A stretch of 64,000 nucleotides of DNA, from the NCBI GenBank assembly GCA_035301825.1, contig DATGTP010000034.1:1290-65289 (forward strand), read 5' to 3'. Both the position numbers and the translations under genes were made by a program. Source of the DNA: Pseudogracilibacillus sp. Its GTDB lineage: Bacteria; Bacillota; Bacilli; Bacillales; Amphibacillaceae. Under the pieces are notes generated by a model that was given only the letters and a program-made list of their open reading frames with translations, did not search any database and was not told the origin of the DNA. The first letter of the stretch is position 1. Each line of letters begins with the position of its first letter. This document shows, in pieces, positions 12,493 through 22,746 of the stretch.

Positions 12493-14484
12493 TTAACTTT
12501 CAGCTTTCAGTTCGAATATAATATCTCTTAATTCTGTTGCACGTTCGAACTCTAAGTTTCTTGCCGCTTCTTTCATTTCAACTTCTAAGTTTTCAATCAC
12601 TTTAGCTCGTTCTTTTTTCGGCAACTGACTAATTGGAATACGTTCATCGTCTTTCGTCGTTAACTCCTCAACCTCTTCAGCGACATATGTCGCTTGGATT
12701 AACTCACGAACATCTTTCTTAATCGTCTGTGGTGTAATCCCATGTTCTTCGTTAAAGGCCTTTTGTATCGTCCGACGACGATTCGTTTCATCTATCGCCT
12801 TTTGCATGGAATCTGTAATCCGATCTGCATACATGATGACCTTACCATTGGCATTACGCGCAGCCCGTCCAGCCGTCTGAATCAATGATCGTTCTGAACG
12901 TAAGAAACCTTCCTTATCTGCATCCAAAATAGCAACTAAGGACACTTCCGGTATATCAAGCCCTTCACGTAATAAGTTAATCCCGATTAAAACATCATAT
13001 TTTCCTAATCGTAAGTCACGAATAATTTCAATTCGTGCTAATGTTTTGATTTCCGAATGTAAATAAGCGACTTTATAATTTAACTCCTTAAAGTAATCCG
13101 TTAAATCTTCTGACATTCTTTTCGTTAAGGTTGTAATTAAAACTCGCTCTTTTTTCTCAATTCGTTGATTAATTTCTTCCATTAAATCATCAATTTGTCC
13201 ATCAATTGGACGAACATCTATTTCTGGATCAAGCAAGCCTGTCGGTCGAATAATTTGTTCGACCATTTCTTTCGTATGTTCCATTTCATATGGTCCAGGT
13301 GTCGCTGATACATACATCGTCTGTTTGACCTTCTGTTCAAACTCCTCAAACTTAAGTGGTCGGTTATCTAAAGCTGACGGTAAGCGAAAACCATGATCGA
13401 CTAACATTTGCTTACGTGCCTGGTCTCCATTATACATGGCACGAACTTGCGGCAAGGTCGCATGTGACTCATCAATCACGACTAAAAAGTCATCCGGAAA
13501 GAAATCTAACAATGTATAAGGTGTTGATCCTGCTTCACGAAATGTTAAATGACGTGAATAGTTTTCAATTCCTGAACAAAAGCCCATTTCACGCATCATT
13601 TCTAAATCGTAATTTGTTCGTTGTTCAAGCCTTTGCGCTTCTAGTAGCTTTCCTTCCGCTTCCATGACTTTTAATTGATCTTCTAATTCTTTTTCAATGT
13701 TGTCAATCGCTTTTTTCATTTTCTCTTCACGTGTGACGAAGTGAGAGGCTGGGAATATCGCAACATGTTCCCGATCCCCAATAATTTCACCTGTTAGAGC
13801 GTCGACTTCACGGATTCGATCAATTTCATCTCCAAAAAACTCAATCCGTATACAATGTTCTTCCCGTGAGGCCGGAATAATTTCAACTGAATCACCACGT
13901 ACCCGGAAGGTCCCCCGTTTAAAGTCAATATCATTACGAGCATATTGAATATCAACTAATTGCCGTAACAATTCATCTCGTTCAATTTCCATACCCATTC
14001 GCAATGAACAGACTTGACTTCGATACTCTTCTGGCGAACCAAGACCATATATACATGAGACACTGGCAACAATTAAGACATCACGCCGCTCAAATAAAGA
14101 TGATGTTGCAGAGTGACGCAACTTATCAATTTCATCATTAATACTGGCATCTTTTTCAATAAATGTATCTGTTGAAGGAACATATGCTTCAGGCTGATAA
14201 TAATCATAATAACTCACAAAATATTCAACCGCATTTTCTGGGAAAAACTCTTTAAATTCACTGTACAATTGACCAGCTAAGGTCTTATTATGAGCAATGA
14301 CTAAAGTCGGACGATTCACTTCTGTCACGACGTTAGACACCGTAAAGGTCTTCCCTGTCCCTGTTGCACCTAATAAAGTTAAATGTTTTTCTTCATCATC
14401 TAATTGCCTGACAAGTTGATCAATTGCTTTTGGTTGATCCCCTTGAGGTGTGAATGATGACACGAGATTAAACTTTTCTGTCAC
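12493..14484 (-). CDS. uvrB: Excinuclease ABC subunit B
   Basis: [19 protein letters not shown]-terminal UVR domain. Confidence 0.98.
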
Positions 14485-14595: not shown

Positions 14596-15807
14596 TTACC
14601 AATGGCTATTTTTATATTTTCGATAATAGTTAATCTGCCTTAAAAATAAGTACAATTTGCGCTTCAAGCTTTTATCTTTTTTATAAAAGAGTGGATTCCC
14701 AAATCGTTTCTTTTTTAACAACTGTTTCACTTCTTTTTTGACAGCATCGTTTTTGACAAATGTTTTTAACACTTGCCTAGGAACGACTGTAAATAAAAAG
14801 TGGTCTTCAATATATTCAAGTGATTTAGATTTATTTTCAATTAAATCATCAACAAGTAACTGAGCCATATTATGACCACATTGTGTTATATAATAACTTG
14901 AACGGCCTTGCCTCACATTTACTTCAAACACTTTAAACTTGCCATCTCGTTGATCGTATTTTAAATCGAAGTTAGCAAAACCAACATAGCCAAGCTCTTT
15001 TAAAAACTGAACTAACTTGTCCATCATTTCTCTATTTGGCTTTGTAATCACAGCTGTATAGTTTCCTATTCCTGTTATGGTATGCTCTTGTAAAACAACT
15101 TGGCCAAATGAAACAACTTGTGGCTCACTTTCCTGACTCATATAAACGACAGCATCCCACATGTAAGTATCATCACCAGGAATATAATCTTGAATGATCA
15201 GTTCATCACGGTAGCCACTATCTTTAATTTTCTCAATCACTTCTTGTGCTTCTTCTAGACTATTTAGCTTATATACTTTATGTTGACCTGGAAAGCTATG
15301 TTTGAAGTAGTTGACGCCATTACCAGGCTTGATAATAATTGGATAAGTCATCTCTTCAGTAAAGGTTTCTTCTGAAGCGCAATCAAACATATATGTTTTT
15401 GGAATATCAATCCCATGTCTCTCACACACTTTATAAAAATTATTTTTCACAAGTAAGTCATTCAATAAATTTTCTTCAATATAATTAAACTTAAAGTCCT
15501 TTTCTAATTGTTGACGATTTTCAACAATTAAACGAACATATTCATCATTTGTCGCTACTAACACTAAATGTTCCGCTTCATTTTTATATTGTTGGGAAAT
15601 TTTTTCTAAATGCTTAAGAAATACATCTGTCTCATGTAAGTTTTCATCGTAAATAATATGTGTCGTAATCGTACTATATTCAGTGAATGACATCGGTGAC
15701 TGACCTAATAATACAGGCTTCATCCCATATGCCTCATGAAAAGAGATTGCCATATTGTATGCATTCATATCAGTTCCAACAATTATTGGAATAAATTTCG
15801 CTTTCAT
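14596..15807 (-). CDS. ATP-grasp carboxylate-amine ligase, D-aspartate ligase (Aslfm/YxbA)-like
   Basis: FIPIIVGTDMNAY..A.SFHEAYG, QDYIPGDD, IGNY, GFANFDLKYD.RDG.FK.FEVN.RQGRSS; start set at MKAKF from GGAG RBS. Confidence 0.8.
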   Translation of the reverse strand: MKAKFIPIIVGTDMNAYNMAISFHEAYGMKPVLLGQSPMSFTEYSTITTHIIYDENLHETDVFLKHLEKISQQYKNEAEHLVLVATNDEYVRLIVENRQQLEKDFKFNYIEENLLNDLLVKNNFYKVCERHGIDIPKTYMFDCASEETFTEEMTYPIIIKPGNGVNYFKHSFPGQHKVYKLNSLEEAQEVIEKIKDSGYRDELIIQDYIPGDDTYMWDAVVYMSQESEPQVVSFGQVVLQEHTITGIGNYTAVITKPNREMMDKLVQFLKELGYVGFANFDLKYDQRDGKFKVFEVNVRQGRSSYYITQCGHNMAQLLVDDLIENKSKSLEYIEDHFLFTVVPRQVLKTFVKNDAVKKEVKQLLKKKRFGNPLFYKKDKSLKRKLYLFLRQINYYRKYKNSHW

Positions 15808-16153
15808 TTTAGGCTCCAATCCGCAATTCTAATTGATTGCTTTTCTCTTGTTCCTTCATTGTACAATACTGTATGAATACCTTTCAAATCATATAAAAGA
15901 TAAGGGATAGCTCAGCATTATTCTAATGGCTCTCCCTATCTTATATATAGTATAATCGACATGATTCATTATTTTTATCACATTTTCGTTGCTTGATTAT
16001 TCGAAGTAAACTAAATAATAAATAGTCAAAAAATGATAAATAGATGTTTTAAAAATGGTCACAATGTGAATGGTATAAGAAATAGATATTCTTAGAACCT
16101 GTTAAGACATCTTTTTGTGTATCAAAATTAAGGATTGGATTGGAGTGGAATAA

Positions 16154-17626
16154 ATGAATTTAAAAAAATTATTATCTCAGATAAATATTATTCATACGAC
16201 TCATGATGTAGACAAGATTGACATTCATGCCCTTGCTTATGATTCGCGTAAGGTAGGCAAAAATGATTTATTTGTCGCTATTCGAGGCTATGTCACAGAT
16301 GGTCATCTCTTTTTACAGTCAGCTGCTAACAATGGCGCCCAAGCTGCTATTGTGGAAGAAATTGATGAAAGTGTAAATATCCCACAAATTCAAGTTGACA
16401 ATAGTAGGTTAGCACTAGCCATTATTGCTGATCAATTTTATAGGCATCCATCAAGACAGATGCAAACAATCGGTGTAACTGCTACAAACGGTAAAACAAC
16501 TACTTCTTATATGATTAATGAAGTGTTAGAAAATGCTCATTTTAAAACAGGGGTTGTTGGGAGCGTAAATGTAAAGGTTGGTAATCATTATGAACCTGCT
16601 GAATTAACGACACCTGAATCATTAGACTTACAAGCTTACTTTCACGAGATGCAAGAAGCTCAAGTTACCCACGCGATTATGGAAGTGTCATCTGCTGCTC
16701 AAGAATTATATCGTGTAGCAGCCATTCATTATGATATCGTTACTTTGAATAATATTAATAAAGAACATATTGACACACATGGAAGCTTTGAAAATTATGT
16801 TGCTCAAAAGACTAAATTAATTAAGCAAGCACCAAAAGATAGTATTGCGATTTTAAACTTAGATTGCCAGGAAGCTAAAGACTTAAGATCGGAGACAGAT
16901 GCTCACGTCATCACGTTTGCTCTCGATAACAAGCATGCAGATTTCACCGTAGAAAACCTTGATTTATCAACAGGACGAGCACAATTTGATGTTCAATTAA
17001 ACAAAGAAATAAAGCTGAATGGTAATACTTTAAAGCCGATGACTTTCAGAATGGAGTTAGGTGTACCTGGTTTACATTCTGTATCTAATTCAATGATTGC
17101 TATTATAATTGGCTTAATAAATGATATTGCTATAGAAAGTATCCAAACAAGCTTAAAAGCTTTTAATGGTGTTCATCGTCGCTTTCAATTTATTCATGAA
17201 GGTGACTTCACCGTTATTGATGATCATTTTGCTAACCCTGGTAATATTAATGTCACTCTAGAAACATTAAGCTTAATGGATTACCGCCACTTAAAATTAT
17301 TATATGCTATACGTGGTAATCGCGGTGCCGAAGTAAACGAAGATAATGCAAACACTTTAGTTAAATGGGCTCCACGCTTAGGCTTAAAAGAGGTTTATGT
17401 AACACGAAGCCAATCAGACGTCACTGACAAGGATAAGGTGACTGACGAGGAATATGAGGCCTTTGTGACCATTCTCCATGACCACGGGATTCAAACAATT
17501 GATTTTGATGAGTTAGATGATTCGATTCAAGCTATCATAAAAGAAGTTGGCACAGATGATTTACTCTTACTTGCCGGCTGTCAAGGAATGGATGAAGGAG
17601 CAAAGTATCTCCATCAATATGTGTAA
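16154..17626 (+). CDS. murE: Atypical MurE-family UDP-MurNAc-tripeptide ligase
   Basis: YDSR, GVTATNGKTTT, TTPES, MEVSS; C-terminal domain lacks the DNPR DAP-specificity motif. Confidence 0.75.
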   Translation: MNLKKLLSQINIIHTTHDVDKIDIHALAYDSRKVGKNDLFVAIRGYVTDGHLFLQSAANNGAQAAIVEEIDESVNIPQIQVDNSRLALAIIADQFYRHPSRQMQTIGVTATNGKTTTSYMINEVLENAHFKTGVVGSVNVKVGNHYEPAELTTPESLDLQAYFHEMQEAQVTHAIMEVSSAAQELYRVAAIHYDIVTLNNINKEHIDTHGSFENYVAQKTKLIKQAPKDSIAILNLDCQEAKDLRSETDAHVITFALDNKHADFTVENLDLSTGRAQFDVQLNKEIKLNGNTLKPMTFRMELGVPGLHSVSNSMIAIIIGLINDIAIESIQTSLKAFNGVHRRFQFIHEGDFTVIDDHFANPGNINVTLETLSLMDYRHLKLLYAIRGNRGAEVNEDNANTLVKWAPRLGLKEVYVTRSQSDVTDKDKVTDEEYEAFVTILHDHGIQTIDFDELDDSIQAIIKEVGTDDLLLLAGCQGMDEGAKYLHQYV

Positions 17627-17630
17627 AGAG

Positions 17631-17664
17631 AAAAGCCATCTATACAAAATGTATAGATGGTTTT
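17631..17664. terminator. Bidirectional terminator between murE-like and minJ
   Basis: AAAAGCCATCTATACA-AAA-TGTATAGATGGTTTT. Confidence 0.75.
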
Positions 17665-18818
17665 TATTGACTAGCAAACAAGAGACCAAGCTCATGGTGT
17701 TCTGCTTCATAACGCGGACATGTTAAATACCGCTCTTTCCCTTTCATATCTTGAACATATAATTTATAAAATGGTACTTCTTCTCGCAAGTATTGATAAA
17801 ATTGTCCTTCACTCCTAATTGAATAACCATTTACTTTTAGTATTGTTTCACCTGCTTTTAAACCTATTTCACTCGCCGTACTTTCTTCAATGACAGCAAT
17901 AATCTTCAAGCCATCCTTCACTGGATAATAAAGTGACTTCCCTTTCCTATCTTTTAACCTTAATAAGAATACGATCAACTCTCTACCAAAAATCGTTAAT
18001 ACAATCAAGATGATTCCTATATATTCTATCTGTAAAAACATGGACAACATAGCGACTGCTGATAAGGTCATTAATAAAATAGCGTATGATCGAATTAAAT
18101 CTTGTCTCAACTCTTTAAAAGGATATGAAACAAAAGTAAATTGATAGCCAAATAAAAATGGAATGATCACTAATTGATATGAATGATTTGGTAATTCAAT
18201 AAAAGGGAGCCATTGAATAAGTGGCTCAATCATTTCAGTTGGGACATAAGCGACAAAAGGTAATAAAAGACCACGCTTTAATTGGCTAGCTCCTACCGTT
18301 AATCCTCGATTACTCTTTATTTTCTTCGAAAACAAGTGGTTACGATTCGAGAATAGAACACTGACAACTTCGACAATTAGTAAAGCCATTATAAAGATAA
18401 ATACTGTAAATGATTCTTCAATTAAAAGGTTGACTTGCTCAAGTTCTCCCATCATTGTTACTGCAATAAAAGTTAAAGTATAACTTAGTCCAATCGTATA
18501 TACTGCAGATAAAAAACTAAATGATTTCATGAAAAATAAACTAATAAACAAGACCATCATCATGATCAATAAATACTTTGTCATGACAAGCTGAAAATAA
18601 ATTGTAAAAGCAGATATGACAATTGTAAAAATCAAAGTCATAAAAAGGGACTGTTTCCATTCATAAGACCAGTCTTTTAATTTTATTCGAAATAAACGGC
18701 GCTCATTTTTAATCCTGCGATAACCTGTCAATAATACAATCGCTAAGACGATATAAAAAAGGGGATTGAGTAATAAAAGTACCCCATTTAATAAGACAAT
18801 GTTCATGAAGTCAGCCAT
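17664..18818 (-). CDS. minJ: Cell division topological determinant MinJ (multi-TM + C-terminal PDZ)
   Basis: Polytopic membrane protein, PDZ (GLKAGETILKVNG), HELGLLF end; downstream of ctpB. Confidence 0.75.
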   Translation of the reverse strand: MADFMNIVLLNGVLLLLNPLFYIVLAIVLLTGYRRIKNERRLFRIKLKDWSYEWKQSLFMTLIFTIVISAFTIYFQLVMTKYLLIMMMVLFISLFFMKSFSFLSAVYTIGLSYTLTFIAVTMMGELEQVNLLIEESFTVFIFIMALLIVEVVSVLFSNRNHLFSKKIKSNRGLTVGASQLKRGLLLPFVAYVPTEMIEPLIQWLPFIELPNHSYQLVIIPFLFGYQFTFVSYPFKELRQDLIRSYAILLMTLSAVAMLSMFLQIEYIGIILIVLTIFGRELIVFLLRLKDRKGKSLYYPVKDGLKIIAVIEESTASEIGLKAGETILKVNGYSIRSEGQFYQYLREEVPFYKLYVQDMKGKERYLTCPRYEAEHHELGLLFASQ

Positions 18819-18841: not shown

Positions 18842-20296
18842 TTAATTATATAAGGCTTCAATCGCCTTTTCTAATTGTAAATCATCTTCTTTTTCACGAA
18901 TATTATCGACTACATTTAATTCAATTTGTCCATAAGTCTTTTCGTTAATTGTGCCTGTTACATCTAAATCATGGTCCTTTTGATATGCTTTGACCACTTT
19001 TTCCATTTCTTCATCAAAATAGCCATCTGTTCGGATATCATCATAGCCAATACCTTTTAACATTTTTTGAATTGTTTCGATATCTTCACCAACATCATCT
19101 TTTTTCAATTCATCGTCTAAACTGACAGGTGTTAAGTAATAATAATCTGGTTGTTTTTGTTCAATGGTTGGCTCTACTCCTACTTCATTAATCCAATTAC
19201 CATCAGGTGACAACCATTTGAAAAATGTTAACTTAACGGTACTCCCATCACCTAGGGAAACTGCTTGCTGTACGGTTCCTTTACCAAAAGACTTTGTTCC
19301 AACAACATCATAACCGTTTTCTTTTAAGGTGACAGCTAAGATTTCTGAAGCTGAAGCACTTCCTTCATCGGTTATAATGGAAATCGGATAATCTTTCCCT
19401 TCTGTCAGATTAGTAAAGTATTCTTCTTTTTTACCATCACGATCTTCTATTTGAATGTATGGCTTATCTTTCGTCACGAGCAACTCTAAAATTTCTTCAA
19501 CTGAATCAAGTAGACCACCTGGATTACCTCGAACATCAATTACGAGTCCATCCATTCCTTCATCTTCCAGTTCATTTAAAAAGTCTTCAAATTCTGTTGA
19601 TGTCCGCTCCGAAAATGATGTTAATGTTAAATAACCTGTTTTCTTACCGTCTTCCTCTAGCATTTCTTTATAAACCGTTTCTACTGGAATATCATCACGA
19701 ACAAGTTCTACTTCAAATGGCTTTTCTGATCCAGCACGTTCAATGAGTAAGGTTACTGTGGACCCTTTTTCGCCTCGAATATGTTCTACCGCTTCGTGTA
19801 AATCATAACCTTCCAATGATTCGCCATCTACTTCTAATACAACATCATTCGGACGTAATCCAGCTTTTTCTGCAGGTGAATCTTTAATAGGCGAAATAAT
19901 TGTTACCTTTCCTTCGCGTAGACTCACTTCAGCACCAATCCCTTGAAAGGAAGAGTTAATTTGTTCTTCAAAACGTTCCATTGCTTCAACATTCATATAT
20001 TCACTATAAGGGTCATCTAAAACATCTAATATCCCCTTAATAGCCCCTTCATATAAATCATCTTCTTCGACTTCCTCAATATAATGTTGCTCTATTAATT
20101 GGAGCGTCTGGACAATTTTCTCCAATTGTGGATCATCTAAATCCGTTTGATTGGTAGATTTGTTATTGTCCTTCTCGATAACAGGTGGTTTTTCTTGTGT
20201 TGACTCAAACCATTTTGTCCCAACAAAAGCTCCACCTATTCCTACTCCGAAACATATAATTGTTGCTAAGATAAATTGCCATAATTTTAATTTCAT
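18842..20296 (-). CDS. ctpB: Carboxy-terminal processing protease (S41, PDZ, PG-binding domain)
   Basis: FQGIGAEV, DVRGNPGG, SASASEI, FGKGTVQ; start set at MKLKLW. Confidence 0.85.
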   Translation of the reverse strand: MKLKLWQFILATIICFGVGIGGAFVGTKWFESTQEKPPVIEKDNNKSTNQTDLDDPQLEKIVQTLQLIEQHYIEEVEEDDLYEGAIKGILDVLDDPYSEYMNVEAMERFEEQINSSFQGIGAEVSLREGKVTIISPIKDSPAEKAGLRPNDVVLEVDGESLEGYDLHEAVEHIRGEKGSTVTLLIERAGSEKPFEVELVRDDIPVETVYKEMLEEDGKKTGYLTLTSFSERTSTEFEDFLNELEDEGMDGLVIDVRGNPGGLLDSVEEILELLVTKDKPYIQIEDRDGKKEEYFTNLTEGKDYPISIITDEGSASASEILAVTLKENGYDVVGTKSFGKGTVQQAVSLGDGSTVKLTFFKWLSPDGNWINEVGVEPTIEQKQPDYYYLTPVSLDDELKKDDVGEDIETIQKMLKGIGYDDIRTDGYFDEEMEKVVKAYQKDHDLDVTGTINEKTYGQIELNVVDNIREKEDDLQLEKAIEALYN

Positions 20297-20404
20297 TTTT
20301 TCAACTCCGATATTCAATGTCTTACGTTTAGTTTATCATAATTTAAATCCAACTTACATATAAAAAAAGAACTACGAAAATTTCACTTCGTAGTTCTTAA
20401 ATTA

Positions 20405-21817
20405 TTATGGTAAATAACCACTTGGATTTACTGGGTTTTTATATCCACCTGGATGCACTTCAAAATGTAAGTGAACTCCTGTTGAGTTTCCTGTTGTTCC
20501 CATAATACCAATTTGTTGCCCTTGTTTTACAACTTGTCCTGCTGACACATTAATTGAACTCATATGAGCATACAATGTCGTAACATCTCCATGGGTAATC
20601 ATAACTGTATTTCCATAGCCACCCATCCAACCTGCATGGGATACAACCCCATCTTTTGCAGAAATGATTGGTGGTGTAGAACTGTTAAGTGGTGCAAAGT
20701 CCAAACCATTATGATATGTTGATCCAATACCTCCTGGAGATTTCCTTGGACCAAATCCTGACGTAACCACAACATGACCTGAAACTGGTGTTATAAAACC
20801 GCTACTTGAATTTGAAGCAGGTGGTGAGTTTCCTCCTGAATTATCTCCTGATCCACTTCCACCGCTAGAACCTGAGTTTCCATTACTATTTCCATTGTTA
20901 CTTGCTTGGCTAGCTTCTTGTTCAGCTTTTCTTTTCGCTTCAGCTTCTTCCGCAGCTTTACGTTCTGCCTCTTCAATATCTGATTTTTTATTTGCAAGTA
21001 ATTGCTTAGCTTGCTCAGCATATTTTGCTTCACTAGCAATTAATTCATCTTCTTCAGATGCTGTTAACTCTGCTGTTTCTAACTCTTCATATTCTTCAGC
21101 AAGCTTATCTTTCACTTTCTCTTGTTCTTTTTTCTGACCCTTTAAATCCGCTTTTAAGCCATCAAGAACTGAACGTTGTTTTTCTAGTTCTTTCTTTTTA
21201 GCCTCAACCTCTTCTTTTTTCTCTTCAACTTCGACTTGCTTTTTTTCTAAGGTTTCCTGGTCTTCTTCAAGTTCACGCATAATTTGTTTATCCGAATCCA
21301 TAATTGTACTTACTGAACTTGAACGACTAATAAAATCACCAAAGTCTGTCGCCCCTAAAAGAACAGCAATATATTTAGAAAATCCACCTGTCTCTTGAAT
21401 TGAACGTAAACGATCTTTTAATAAGTCTAAACGGCGTTCTATTTTCTCGATTAGTTCTTCAATTTCTTTATCTAGCTTTTTAATTTGTGAATTCAATTTT
21501 CGAATTTCATTTTCATTTAACGAAATTTCATTTTCTTTTTCTTGAATCGAAACTTCTGTTTGACTTAACTTCGTTTCAATTGTTGATAATTCAGCTTTAA
21601 CATCATCTTGCTTTTCAACATTTTCTTTCTTTTGTTTTTTTATTTTAGACTTTTTCTCGCCAATTTCGTTTTGTTTATCTTTTAGTTCGCTTTGCTCTTT
21701 CTCTAATTCTTTTATTTCAGACTCGATGTCTTGTACTGTTTGTGCAGAAGACTCTATATTAAAAGAGAATATGACCATGAACAAAGTAACAACACTAATG
21801 ACTATTTTATTTTTCAT
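20405..21817 (-). CDS. Secreted coiled-coil (PcsB/CwlO-type) protein with M23 peptidase domain, probable FtsEX partner
   Basis: Signal peptide, long coiled coil, Gly/Ser/Asn linker, HNGLD and HLH M23 motifs; directly after ftsX. Confidence 0.85.
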   Translation of the reverse strand: MKNKIVISVVTLFMVIFSFNIESSAQTVQDIESEIKELEKEQSELKDKQNEIGEKKSKIKKQKKENVEKQDDVKAELSTIETKLSQTEVSIQEKENEISLNENEIRKLNSQIKKLDKEIEELIEKIERRLDLLKDRLRSIQETGGFSKYIAVLLGATDFGDFISRSSSVSTIMDSDKQIMRELEEDQETLEKKQVEVEEKKEEVEAKKKELEKQRSVLDGLKADLKGQKKEQEKVKDKLAEEYEELETAELTASEEDELIASEAKYAEQAKQLLANKKSDIEEAERKAAEEAEAKRKAEQEASQASNNGNSNGNSGSSGGSGSGDNSGGNSPPASNSSSGFITPVSGHVVVTSGFGPRKSPGGIGSTYHNGLDFAPLNSSTPPIISAKDGVVSHAGWMGGYGNTVMITHGDVTTLYAHMSSINVSAGQVVKQGQQIGIMGTTGNSTGVHLHFEVHPGGYKNPVNPSGYLP

Positions 21818-21852
21818 TCTCCTCGCAATCCCCCTATACAAACTTAATGATT

Positions 21853-22746
21853 TTATACACGTAAAAACTTACGAACACTCATGATACAACCCCATACACC
21901 GATGATTGCTCCAAGTAATAATATTCCTAGTGATAATTGGTAAATAAACGGATTAAATGGTAACAATTCGATAAACGATATCGATGTTTGTCCACTTAAG
22001 TTCGTGTAAATGTATTGGTATGACGAAGCTAACAATACAATTGGCAATATGGATCCAAGTACACCTAAGAGTAAACCTTCGATAAAGAATGGTCCTCTAA
22101 TAAATCCATTTGTTGCACCAACCAATTTCATAATACCTATTTCACGGCTTCTCGCCATAATTGTAAGTTTAATTGTATTTGAGATTAAGAACATAGCTGT
22201 TAAGACTAAGCCCACAATTAATCCTATTCCTATTATTCTAACATACTTATTAAATGCGAATAATTTAGGCACAACTTCTTTTCCATAGTTTACTTTATAA
22301 ACATGTGGCAATCCTTCAATCGTTTGTGCGATCCTTTCAGTATCTTTTGGATCTGCCGTCTTTACAACGAATGCGTGGTTTAATGGGTTATCTTGCTCAA
22401 TCATTTCCCAGATTTGCCCTTCATCACCCATACCTTCAATTAATCCTTCTAATTCGTCTTCCTTTGATGAGAATGATAGTTTTTCAACAGCATCATAAGC
22501 TTCTATTGTCTCTTGTAGCTCTGTTATTTCATCTTCTTCTGCTGTTACTTCAATTAACACTTTAATTTCGACATCTCGTTCAACTTGTGTTGCCATCTCA
22601 TTGATGTTTAATAAAAGACCGACAAACACACCTACTAATAACAAGGTAACAGTAACGGCACCAATCGATGCAATAGACATCCAACCGTTACGAATGACAC
22701 TTTTTGTCCCTTCTCGTATATGTCTTCCCCATGACTTAAATTTCAT
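21853..22746 (-). CDS. ftsX: Cell division permease FtsX
   Basis: RNGWMS, ISNTIKLTI.AR..EI.IMKLVGAT. Confidence 0.95.
   Translation of the reverse strand: MKFKSWGRHIREGTKSVIRNGWMSIASIGAVTVTLLLVGVFVGLLLNINEMATQVERDVEIKVLIEVTAEEDEITELQETIEAYDAVEKLSFSSKEDELEGLIEGMGDEGQIWEMIEQDNPLNHAFVVKTADPKDTERIAQTIEGLPHVYKVNYGKEVVPKLFAFNKYVRIIGIGLIVGLVLTAMFLISNTIKLTIMARSREIGIMKLVGATNGFIRGPFFIEGLLLGVLGSILPIVLLASSYQYIYTNLSGQTSISFIELLPFNPFIYQLSLGILLLGAIIGVWGCIMSVRKFLRV

Follow-up and report, generated by a model that had tools for sequence, protein, structure and literature searches.

A back-to-back ATP-grasp ligase and MurE paralogue between uvrB and minJ of Pseudogracilibacillus form a candidate module for an ornithine-containing, bridged cell wall

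We analyzed a 64,000-nucleotide stretch of a Pseudogracilibacillus sp. genome (GenBank assembly GCA_035301825.1, contig DATGTP010000034.1, positions 1,290 to 65,289 of the forward strand; hereafter, the window) and focused on two genes that lie back to back in divergent orientation, enclosed by uvrB and minJ. One encodes an ATP-grasp carboxylate-amine ligase that we assign to the Aslfm/AslA (D-aspartate ligase) family (14596..15807, minus strand) and the other a 490-amino-acid (aa) MurE paralogue of an "ornithine-wall" clade (16154..17626, plus strand). We consider it likely that the pair is a module that replaces murE and would supply L-ornithine at position 3 of the stem peptide together with a D-glutamate or D-aspartate bridge, giving an A4 wall and, as the likeliest type, A4beta L-Orn-D-Glu. 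The MurE-like protein is a probable UDP-MurNAc-L-Ala-D-Glu:L-ornithine ligase, and the ATP-grasp protein probably ligates D-Glu or D-Asp to the amino group in the side chain of residue 3. The source of the window (contig C34) is a metagenome-assembled genome (MAG) of 1.69 Mb in 71 contigs that is ~80% complete.

A MurE fold with altered amino-acid-binding motifs

We compared the MurE-like protein with domain and family models. All three Mur ligase domains (PF01225, PF08245 and PF02875; N-terminal UDP-binding, central ATPase and C-terminal) scored above their cut-offs, and the murE subfamily model TIGR01085 was passed marginally (259.5 bits, cut-off 257.3) with an alignment that spans residues 22-392 only and leaves the C-domain unaligned. 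Scores against the meso-diaminopimelate (meso-DAP) equivalog models were all below their cut-offs; the L-lysine MurE model NF010628 gave 178.2 bits against a cut-off of 536, and the protein has no DNPA motif. Identity to canonical MurE was 27-36%. Relatives at 50-66% identity were numerous in Bacillales and also present in some Clostridia, most of them named "Mur ligase family protein" by NCBI.

To compare motifs, we aligned the protein with two canonical dcw MurE proteins and assessed conservation in 26 relatives (50-66% identical). The motifs quoted in the original prediction (GVTAT, DDHFANPG, AIRGNRG, AGCQG and a missing DNPR) were all confirmed, at the aligned positions of the canonical motifs. 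In the clade, TGTNGKT becomes TATNGKT (GVTATNGKTT in the window protein), MEVSSH becomes MEVSSAA (His to Ala), DYAHTPD becomes DDHFANPG, GGDRD becomes IRGxRG (AIRGNRG in the window protein) and AGKGHE becomes AGCQGMD. The DNPR motif of meso-DAP-adding MurE is not present in the MurE-like protein, in which the corresponding position is an acidic stretch around KDKVTDEE (aligned stretch T-D-K-D-K-V-T-D-E-E). These clade motifs are invariant or nearly so in the 26 family members and are thus not due to chance. The Gly to Ala change of the P-loop (TATNGKT) is invariant, as are the rest of the P-loop core and K219, which aligns with the carbamylated catalytic lysine of MurE. Relative to canonical MurE, members of the clade are also shorter at the C-terminus and contain two insertions of about 10 and 13 aa.

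In meso-DAP enzymes, DNPR contributes an Asn and an Arg that bind the substrate at its distal carboxylate, and in the S. aureus lysine enzyme an acidic pocket takes the side-chain amine (PMC3829189). The changed motifs of the window protein align with substrate-binding residues and would thus be rightly placed for a change of amino-acid substrate. An AlphaFold (AF2) model built on the 26 relatives had a predicted local distance difference test (pLDDT) score of 91.8 and a predicted template modeling (pTM) score of 0.88. Its best Foldseek matches were MurE of M. tuberculosis, S. aureus, T. maritima and E. coli (template modeling (TM) score 0.77-0.84); pseudomurein MurE (about 0.71) and MurF (about 0.65) ranked lower. 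The protein folds like MurE and forms a separate clade with altered amino-acid-binding motifs.

An inserted pair and an empty murE slot

The pair lies between uvrB (12493..14484, minus strand; 79-85% identical to the uvrB of congeners) on the left, where uvrA and uvrB flank it, and a MinJ-like PDZ membrane protein gene (17664..18818, minus strand) on the right. In at least 12 of 19 congeners, minJ comes immediately after uvrB, which identifies the 3-kb pair as an insertion. This bears out the original prediction, which had placed an inserted pair between these two genes; both open reading frames (ORFs) are present at the coordinates given above.

To look for a second MurE, we searched the genome by protein comparison and with a murE hidden Markov model (HMM), and neither search found one. 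The dcw cluster, on contig C9, consists of a SpoVD-like penicillin-binding protein (PBP) gene, a 99-bp spacer, murF, mraY, murD and ftsW, with no murE (L003:1-2775, L002). Congener G001 has orthologues of this PBP and of murF (66% and 53% identity) with a 494-aa DNPR MurE between them, and murE adjoins murF in at least eight congeners. The claim that the MurE-like gene lies outside the dcw cluster is therefore true and gains in strength, since the cluster of this genome has no murE at all. A second canonical murE, suggested earlier as the enzyme of the spore cortex, was not found by protein or HMM search, and its usual dcw slot is empty. We infer that the unassembled fifth of the genome holds no canonical MurE either. 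Ornithine carbamoyltransferase and arginase are both encoded, so ornithine should be available.

The MurE clade follows ornithine-containing walls

The clade was present in every ornithine-wall taxon tested (Halobacillus, Bacillus cohnii, Ornithinibacillus, Filobacillus, Psychrobacillus and Chryseomicrobium). For a matched comparison, we used 28 named genomes that carry the window's type of ATP-grasp. Nine of them have the clade (Filobacillus, Ornithinibacillus, two Virgibacillus, three Psychrobacillus and two Chryseomicrobium), and it was not found in the other 19, which are mostly of lysine-wall genera; the clade-negative named genomes comprise Planococcus, three Sporosarcina, Filibacter, Paenisporosarcina, two Bhargavaea, Ureibacillus, Lysinibacillus odysseyi, Nesterenkonia, Alloiococcus and others.

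These searches ran in three rounds, and the outcomes of the second and third were predicted before searching. The first gave Filobacillus milosensis, Ornithinibacillus sp. L9 and Virgibacillus xinjiangensis as positives. The second went as predicted: Psychrobacillus and Chryseomicrobium had the clade, and Planococcus, Sporosarcina and Filibacter did not. Among a further 20 genomes, only Chryseomicrobium palamuruense, Psychrobacillus psychrodurans, P. mangrovi and Virgibacillus indicus were positive and the other 16 were negative. Across the 28-genome set, all ornithine genera were clade-positive and all lysine genera clade-negative, though the genomes are related rather than independent, and the two Virgibacillus species are of unconfirmed wall type.

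Species descriptions supply the wall types of Chryseomicrobium (Orn-D-Glu), Halobacillus, Ornithinibacillus, Caryophanon, Filibacter and the DAP-type genera. Filobacillus is described as having an "Orn-D-Glu-type peptidoglycan" in a title cited in PMC9781867, and PMC5786688 lists Planococcus as L-Lys-D-Glu, Sporosarcina as L-Lys-Gly-D-Glu and Paenisporosarcina as L-Lys-D-Asp. Apart from a general review, our literature search retrieved no paper that ties MurE to walls of the L-Orn-D-Asp or L-Orn-D-Glu type.

The original prediction had left ornithine and lysine side by side as possible substrates of a non-DAP MurE. Its non-DAP part holds, as the clade tracks ornithine walls, and the evidence favors ornithine over lysine. 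Co-occurrence with A4 wall types, which it had named as a check, points the same way: in the 28-genome set (9 with the clade, 19 without), the MurE clade separates ornithine-wall from lysine-wall genera.

Gene context of the clade in other genomes

We examined the neighborhoods of the clade in other genomes, where its operon partners are an ATP-grasp gene, an Asp/Glu racemase gene of ~235-245 aa and, in some genomes, an AsnB-type amidotransferase gene. In Halobacillus salinus, the order is ATP-grasp, MurE-like, Asp/Glu racemase (235 aa; L018:5779-9296). Sutcliffiella (Bacillus) cohnii has ATP-grasp, MurE-like, AsnB-type amidotransferase, C39-like peptidase and racemase (L019:5805-12190). Two further genomes, G024 and G023, repeat the H. 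salinus and S. cohnii layouts. These operons, together with the tracking of ornithine walls, support the core of the original prediction, namely a non-DAP MurE paired with a bridge ligase.

The partner ATP-grasp, which we call type A, is a family of ~395 aa (L014, L015, L018, L019, L025, L032) that is 26-29% identical to the window's ATP-grasp and matches the Ddl C-terminal Pfam family. An order-wide sample of 300 genomes contained the MurE clade in 10, with an adjacent type A gene in 9 of the 10. Type A, which usually shares an operon with the ornithine-type MurE and an aspartate racemase, is probably an independent D-Asp bridge ligase of Orn-D-Asp Bacillaceae. In Virgibacillus indicus, a MurE-like gene is followed in tandem by a window-type ATP-grasp gene, so the window's pairing is not unique. 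A related MAG, whose UvrB is 83% identical to that of the window, carries at the same uvrB-minJ site a MurJ-like gene divergent from MurE-like, ATP-grasp and racemase genes.

The flippase gene of that MAG, of the MurJ/polysaccharide-synthesis type, stands divergent beside the module (L025:5066-6700), and the same type adjoins an ATP-grasp and aspartate racemase pair in G086 (L028:3341-4984). This MurJ-like flippase may be adapted to branched lipid II. In B. cohnii (L019:8756-11384), G023 (L015:11040-14026) and a Paenibacillus (L083:945-3736), the module is accompanied by genes for an AsnB-type amidotransferase and a Peptidase_C39_2-like protein. By analogy with AsnH in Lactococcus, the AsnB-type partner suggests amidation of the bridge residue; the lactococcal/enterococcal gene set for D-Asp/D-isoAsn bridges consists of the ligase, an aspartate racemase and an AsnH-like amidotransferase (PMC4155827). 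A second MurE has been added to the operon in Lentibacillus sediminis (G210) and in congener G015. In G015, this is a canonical DNPR enzyme directly after the ornithine-type one (L016:11516-12952), and in L. sediminis it is a DNPK variant with no GGDRD motif (L032:10231-11742).

The ATP-grasp ligase and its family

Family models returned only weak ATP-grasp matches for the window protein. Relatives were found at 55-64% identity, among them proteins annotated "carboxylate--amine ligase" at 58-64%, and some are named D-aspartate ligase by IMG or UniRef. These relatives occur in Caryophanaceae (Sporosarcina, Planococcus, Psychrobacillus, Caryophanon, Filibacter, Chryseomicrobium and Bhargavaea) and, among further genera, in Virgibacillus, Oceanobacillus, Filobacillus and Ornithinibacillus. 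Among lactobacilli, ATP-grasp genes of Lactobacillus crispatus, Limosilactobacillus fermentum and Latilactobacillus curvatus encode homologues with 30-35% identity across 96-98% of the window protein, and the L. crispatus gene lies directly after asnB. In one protein of 752 aa (P0245, on a Logan contig of 4483 bp), a FemAB-family domain (PF02388) is fused to an ATP-grasp that is 29% identical to the window's enzyme over 97% of the length; this fusion unites two bridge-building chemistries. On the basis of the named relatives, the full-length lactobacillal homology and the FemAB fusion, we assign the window ATP-grasp to the Aslfm/AslA family, a predicted placement that runs through the lactobacillal homologues rather than the E. 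faecium and L. lactis reference proteins. The description "divergent D-Asp ligase" thus calls for qualification, given 55-64% identity to many Caryophanaceae and Virgibacillus proteins and 30-35% to the lactobacillal ones.

Solved structures were rejected as a guide to the substrate, since they yielded remote matches only (VanA and an L-amino-acid ligase; E about 0.004) that are silent on it. In Planococcus, Filobacillus and Ornithinibacillus, the window-type ATP-grasp gene stands alone among housekeeping genes. A structure atlas contains Bacillota protein clusters of 915 aa and 635 aa in which the same ATP-grasp fold is joined to M and C domains of Mur ligases; such clusters may represent natural ATP-grasp-Mur ligase fusions and serve as a lead only. 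A word-based search for longer forms of the ATP-grasp found one FemAB fusion and no ATP-grasp-Mur ligase fusion.

The bridge residue

To place the window ATP-grasp among its relatives, we built a tree of 88 family members rooted on the type A proteins. The window protein and 61 others form a clade (SH-aLRT, the Shimodaira-Hasegawa-like approximate likelihood ratio test, 100). An aspartate racemase gene within 4 kb was found for none of these 62 members and for 15 of the 26 members of the remaining clades, often with AsnB and a MurE. Neither the genome nor the surroundings of the pair in the window yielded an aspartate racemase; the only Asp/Glu racemase found is of MurI-like size. Filobacillus, Psychrobacillus and Chryseomicrobium, which are Orn-D-Glu organisms, carry the window-type ligase but none of type A. 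In Halobacillus and B. cohnii, the Orn-D-Asp organisms examined, a type A ligase is accompanied by a racemase, and Ornithinibacillus strain L9 has only the window-type ligase. Hosts of the window ATP-grasp clade have mostly D-Glu bridges and some have D-Asp (PMC5786688).

The D-Asp bridge of the original prediction was therefore not established: racemase linkage was found in 0 of 62 clade members, no aspartate racemase was found in the genome, and relatives with the same combination of genes are Orn-D-Glu. From these distributions, D-Glu has roughly an even chance of being the bridge residue, D-Asp a slightly smaller one, and the small remainder falls to something else. We rejected the presence of an aspartate racemase anywhere in a genome as a discriminator between D-Asp and D-Glu, because Filobacillus (Orn-D-Glu) has an aspartate-racemase-like gene; only linkage is informative.

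Layout of the locus

The ATP-grasp ORF extends to a TTG at 15819, but translation more probably begins at the ATG at 15807, with a GGAG 7 nt ahead of it; the database copy (P0125) is 403 aa long. GGAG ribosome-binding sites precede both the ATP-grasp gene and the MurE-like gene. Between the two lies an AT-rich divergent spacer of 346 bp (15808..16153; GC 0.28) that is predicted to hold both promoters, with a promoter-like site for the ATP-grasp gene at 15887-15858 (minus strand). No Rfam family matched the spacer and its inverted repeats are weak and AT-rich, and a riboswitch or leader RNA was rejected on these grounds. Where the MurE-like gene and minJ converge, an 11-bp palindromic hairpin (17636..17660) lies between their stop codons and is likely a two-way terminator.

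Past minJ, the window encodes a CtpB-like S41 protease with a PG_binding_1 domain and two unannotated ORFs (18842-20317, 20405-22746). In Halobacillus and G024, the module adjoins ftsX and a gene for a PcsB-like M23 peptidase. With the CtpB-like neighbor of the window, this puts the module repeatedly beside division and wall-hydrolase genes.

A proposed pathway

In the pathway that we propose, MurC and MurD would make UDP-MurNAc-L-Ala-D-Glu, and the MurE paralogue would add L-ornithine at position 3 in place of meso-DAP (or, less likely, L-lysine) before MurF adds D-Ala-D-Ala. The ATP-grasp protein would activate D-Glu or D-Asp as an acyl phosphate and, acting on the nucleotide precursor, transfer it to the ornithine delta-amino group. 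D-Glutamate, already made by the cell for position 2, is favored here, with D-aspartate as the alternative. MraY and the later enzymes would act as usual, and the acceptor for transpeptidases would be the amino group that the new residue brings, making that residue the cross-bridge. The module, inserted between uvrB and minJ, would have functionally replaced the canonical murE. Both substrates and the order of reactions are proposed from comparison with relatives. AslA/Aslfm offers the precedent, ligating D-Asp to lysine on the nucleotide precursor via beta-aspartyl phosphate (PMC4155827).

More tentatively, the MurE clade could be the L-ornithine-specific MurE of Firmicutes and the ATP-grasp clade could include the D-Glu bridge ligase. 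One lineage within the genus would then have switched from A1gamma meso-DAP to A4beta L-Orn-D-Glu by gene replacement, losing the dcw murE and making a spore cortex without diaminopimelate. We consider this fuller scenario possible and, as a whole, doubtful.

Weighing the alternatives

Several observations count against a replacement of murE by an ornithine and D-glutamate module. The substrate calls for both enzymes come from phyletic distribution. At ~80% completeness, a canonical murE or an aspartate racemase could sit in the missing part of the genome. SpoIVA and LysA (lysA) are encoded, so that sporulation and meso-DAP synthesis are both probable, and known A4 spore formers retain a DAP enzyme with which to build the cortex. 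In congener G015, a carrier of the module, the dcw murE slot is empty too (L135), yet a DNPR MurE sits at the module end. The MurE clade also occurs in species of Virgibacillus, Lentibacillus, Cytobacillus and Sediminibacillus, which, at the level of the genus, are usually described as having meso-DAP walls. As to the bridge, Filobacillus, an Orn-D-Glu organism, has an aspartate-racemase-like gene elsewhere in its genome, and Ornithinibacillus is described as Orn-D-Asp though strain L9 has only the window-type ligase. GC content over the pair dips to 0.32-0.34 against a genome mean of 0.36, and 8.5% of 1.5-kb windows of the genome are equally low; we rejected low GC as a sign of recent transfer, the dip being ordinary for this genome. 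Finally, Paenisporosarcina, which is reported as L-Lys-D-Asp (PMC5786688), has a window-type ligase and no type A ligase, so the ATP-grasp clade is not D-Glu-only.

The incomplete assembly, SpoIVA and the G015 arrangement all fit an account in which the pair is an accessory module rather than a replacement and a DNPR-type murE in the unassembled part of the genome serves the spore cortex and perhaps some of the vegetative wall; the function of the module itself would be unchanged. It is also in keeping with this account that Filobacillus, Ornithinibacillus L9, Virgibacillus xinjiangensis, Halobacillus and Psychrobacillus carry one or two canonical MurE besides the clade member. Against it, no second MurE was found by protein or murE HMM search, the slot that holds murE in at least eight congeners is a 99-bp spacer, and the window module ends at a hairpin just before minJ, which leaves no space for a third gene. 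We regard an accessory role as unlikely, though far from negligible.

A second alternative concerns the amino acid. The MurE paralogue could add L-lysine, or both lysine and ornithine, to give an A4alpha wall of the L-Lys-D-Glu or L-Lys-D-Asp type. The genome has lysA and would make lysine, and one clade match is labeled as a Lysinibacillus MAG. Moreover, S. aureus MurE selects mainly by pocket charge and substrate pools and takes ornithine weakly (PMC3829189), so specificity is not readable from motifs alone. However, the clade was found in no lysine-wall genome tested and in all ornithine-wall genera tested, and we judge lysine addition improbable.

It is also conceivable that the pair follows the logic of Ddl and MurF, in which the ATP-grasp would make a free dipeptide (D-Glu-Orn or D-Asp-Orn) and the Mur ligase would add it as a block. 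DDHFANPG is closer to the MurF motif DDxYNANP than to DYAHTPD of MurE, type A ATP-grasps match the Ddl C-terminal Pfam family, and the atlas clusters hint, as a lead only, at ATP-grasp-Mur ligase fusions. Yet the fold of the protein as a whole, like its N-terminal and central domains, is nearest to MurE and not MurF, the window-type ATP-grasp is mostly found alone and far from any Mur ligase, and the characterized AslA/Aslfm works on the nucleotide precursor through beta-aspartyl phosphate (PMC4155827), which together leave dipeptide synthesis very improbable. Least probable of all is a product other than peptidoglycan, such as a nucleotide-peptide metabolite or a peptide polymer. Cyanophycin synthetase, which both proteins match weakly, likewise unites an ATP-grasp and a Mur-ligase domain. 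Against this, the UDP-binding N-terminal Mur domain is kept, the MurE-like protein is the sole MurE candidate in a genome with murD, murF, mraY and ftsW, and its relatives follow wall chemotype and have genes for aspartate racemase, AsnB and a MurJ-like flippase as neighbors.

Significance and comparison with known systems

Both proteins belong to known superfamilies and to a known kind of job. The A4alpha and A4beta wall chemotypes have been taxonomic characters for fifty years, and to our knowledge genes are known only for the enterococcal/lactococcal D-Asp bridge and for the lysine-adding MurE. We know of no characterized member of an ornithine-tracking MurE clade and of no characterized D-Glu bridge ligase, and our literature search found no published identification of an L-ornithine-specific Firmicutes MurE. 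A MurE clade that separates ornithine-wall from lysine- and DAP-wall Bacillales is a testable candidate for the ornithine-adding enzyme and would permit wall types to be predicted from genomes and MAGs, and the racemase-unlinked ligase clade is a candidate D-Glu bridge ligase. Replacement of the dcw murE inside a genus of spore formers would be unusual. The empty slot points to an exchange of wall chemotype inside one genus and raises the question of what a spore cortex is composed of without a DAP-adding enzyme. Position 3 of the stem peptide also determines sensing by NOD1 versus NOD2 and the specificity of endolysins and lysostaphin-type enzymes.

Compared with the meso-DAP ligase MurE (E. 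coli 1E8C, M. tuberculosis 2WTZ), the window protein shares the three-domain fold (TM 0.77-0.84), 30-35% identity in the N-terminal and central domains, the P-loop core and a lysine aligned with the catalytic one, and it probably acts on the same acceptor; it differs in its changed motifs, two insertions, short C-terminus and a gene outside dcw. The L-lysine MurE of S. aureus (4C12) resembles it in being a non-DAP enzyme of Gram-positive bridged walls with a gene outside dcw and a similar fold (TM 0.80); an acidic pocket is expected to hold a basic side chain (PMC3829189). Unlike the S. aureus enzyme, the window protein is without DNPA, and its clade is a distinct one that none of the tested Caryophanaceae with lysine walls was found to carry.

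With Aslfm of E. faecium and AslA of L. lactis, the window ATP-grasp shares its size of ~400 aa and a predicted role in adding the dicarboxylic D-amino acid of an A4 bridge; AslA is encoded in a racD-aslA operon (PMC4155827), whereas the window enzyme is without a racD or aspartate racemase partner. The type A operon of Halobacillus and Bacillus cohnii includes a racemase, in some cases AsnB, a C39-like peptidase and a MurJ-like flippase, none of which accompanies the window pair. In other respects this operon is alike: its MurE belongs to the same clade (50-57% identity), its predicted purpose is the same, and in a related MAG it occupies the same chromosomal site.

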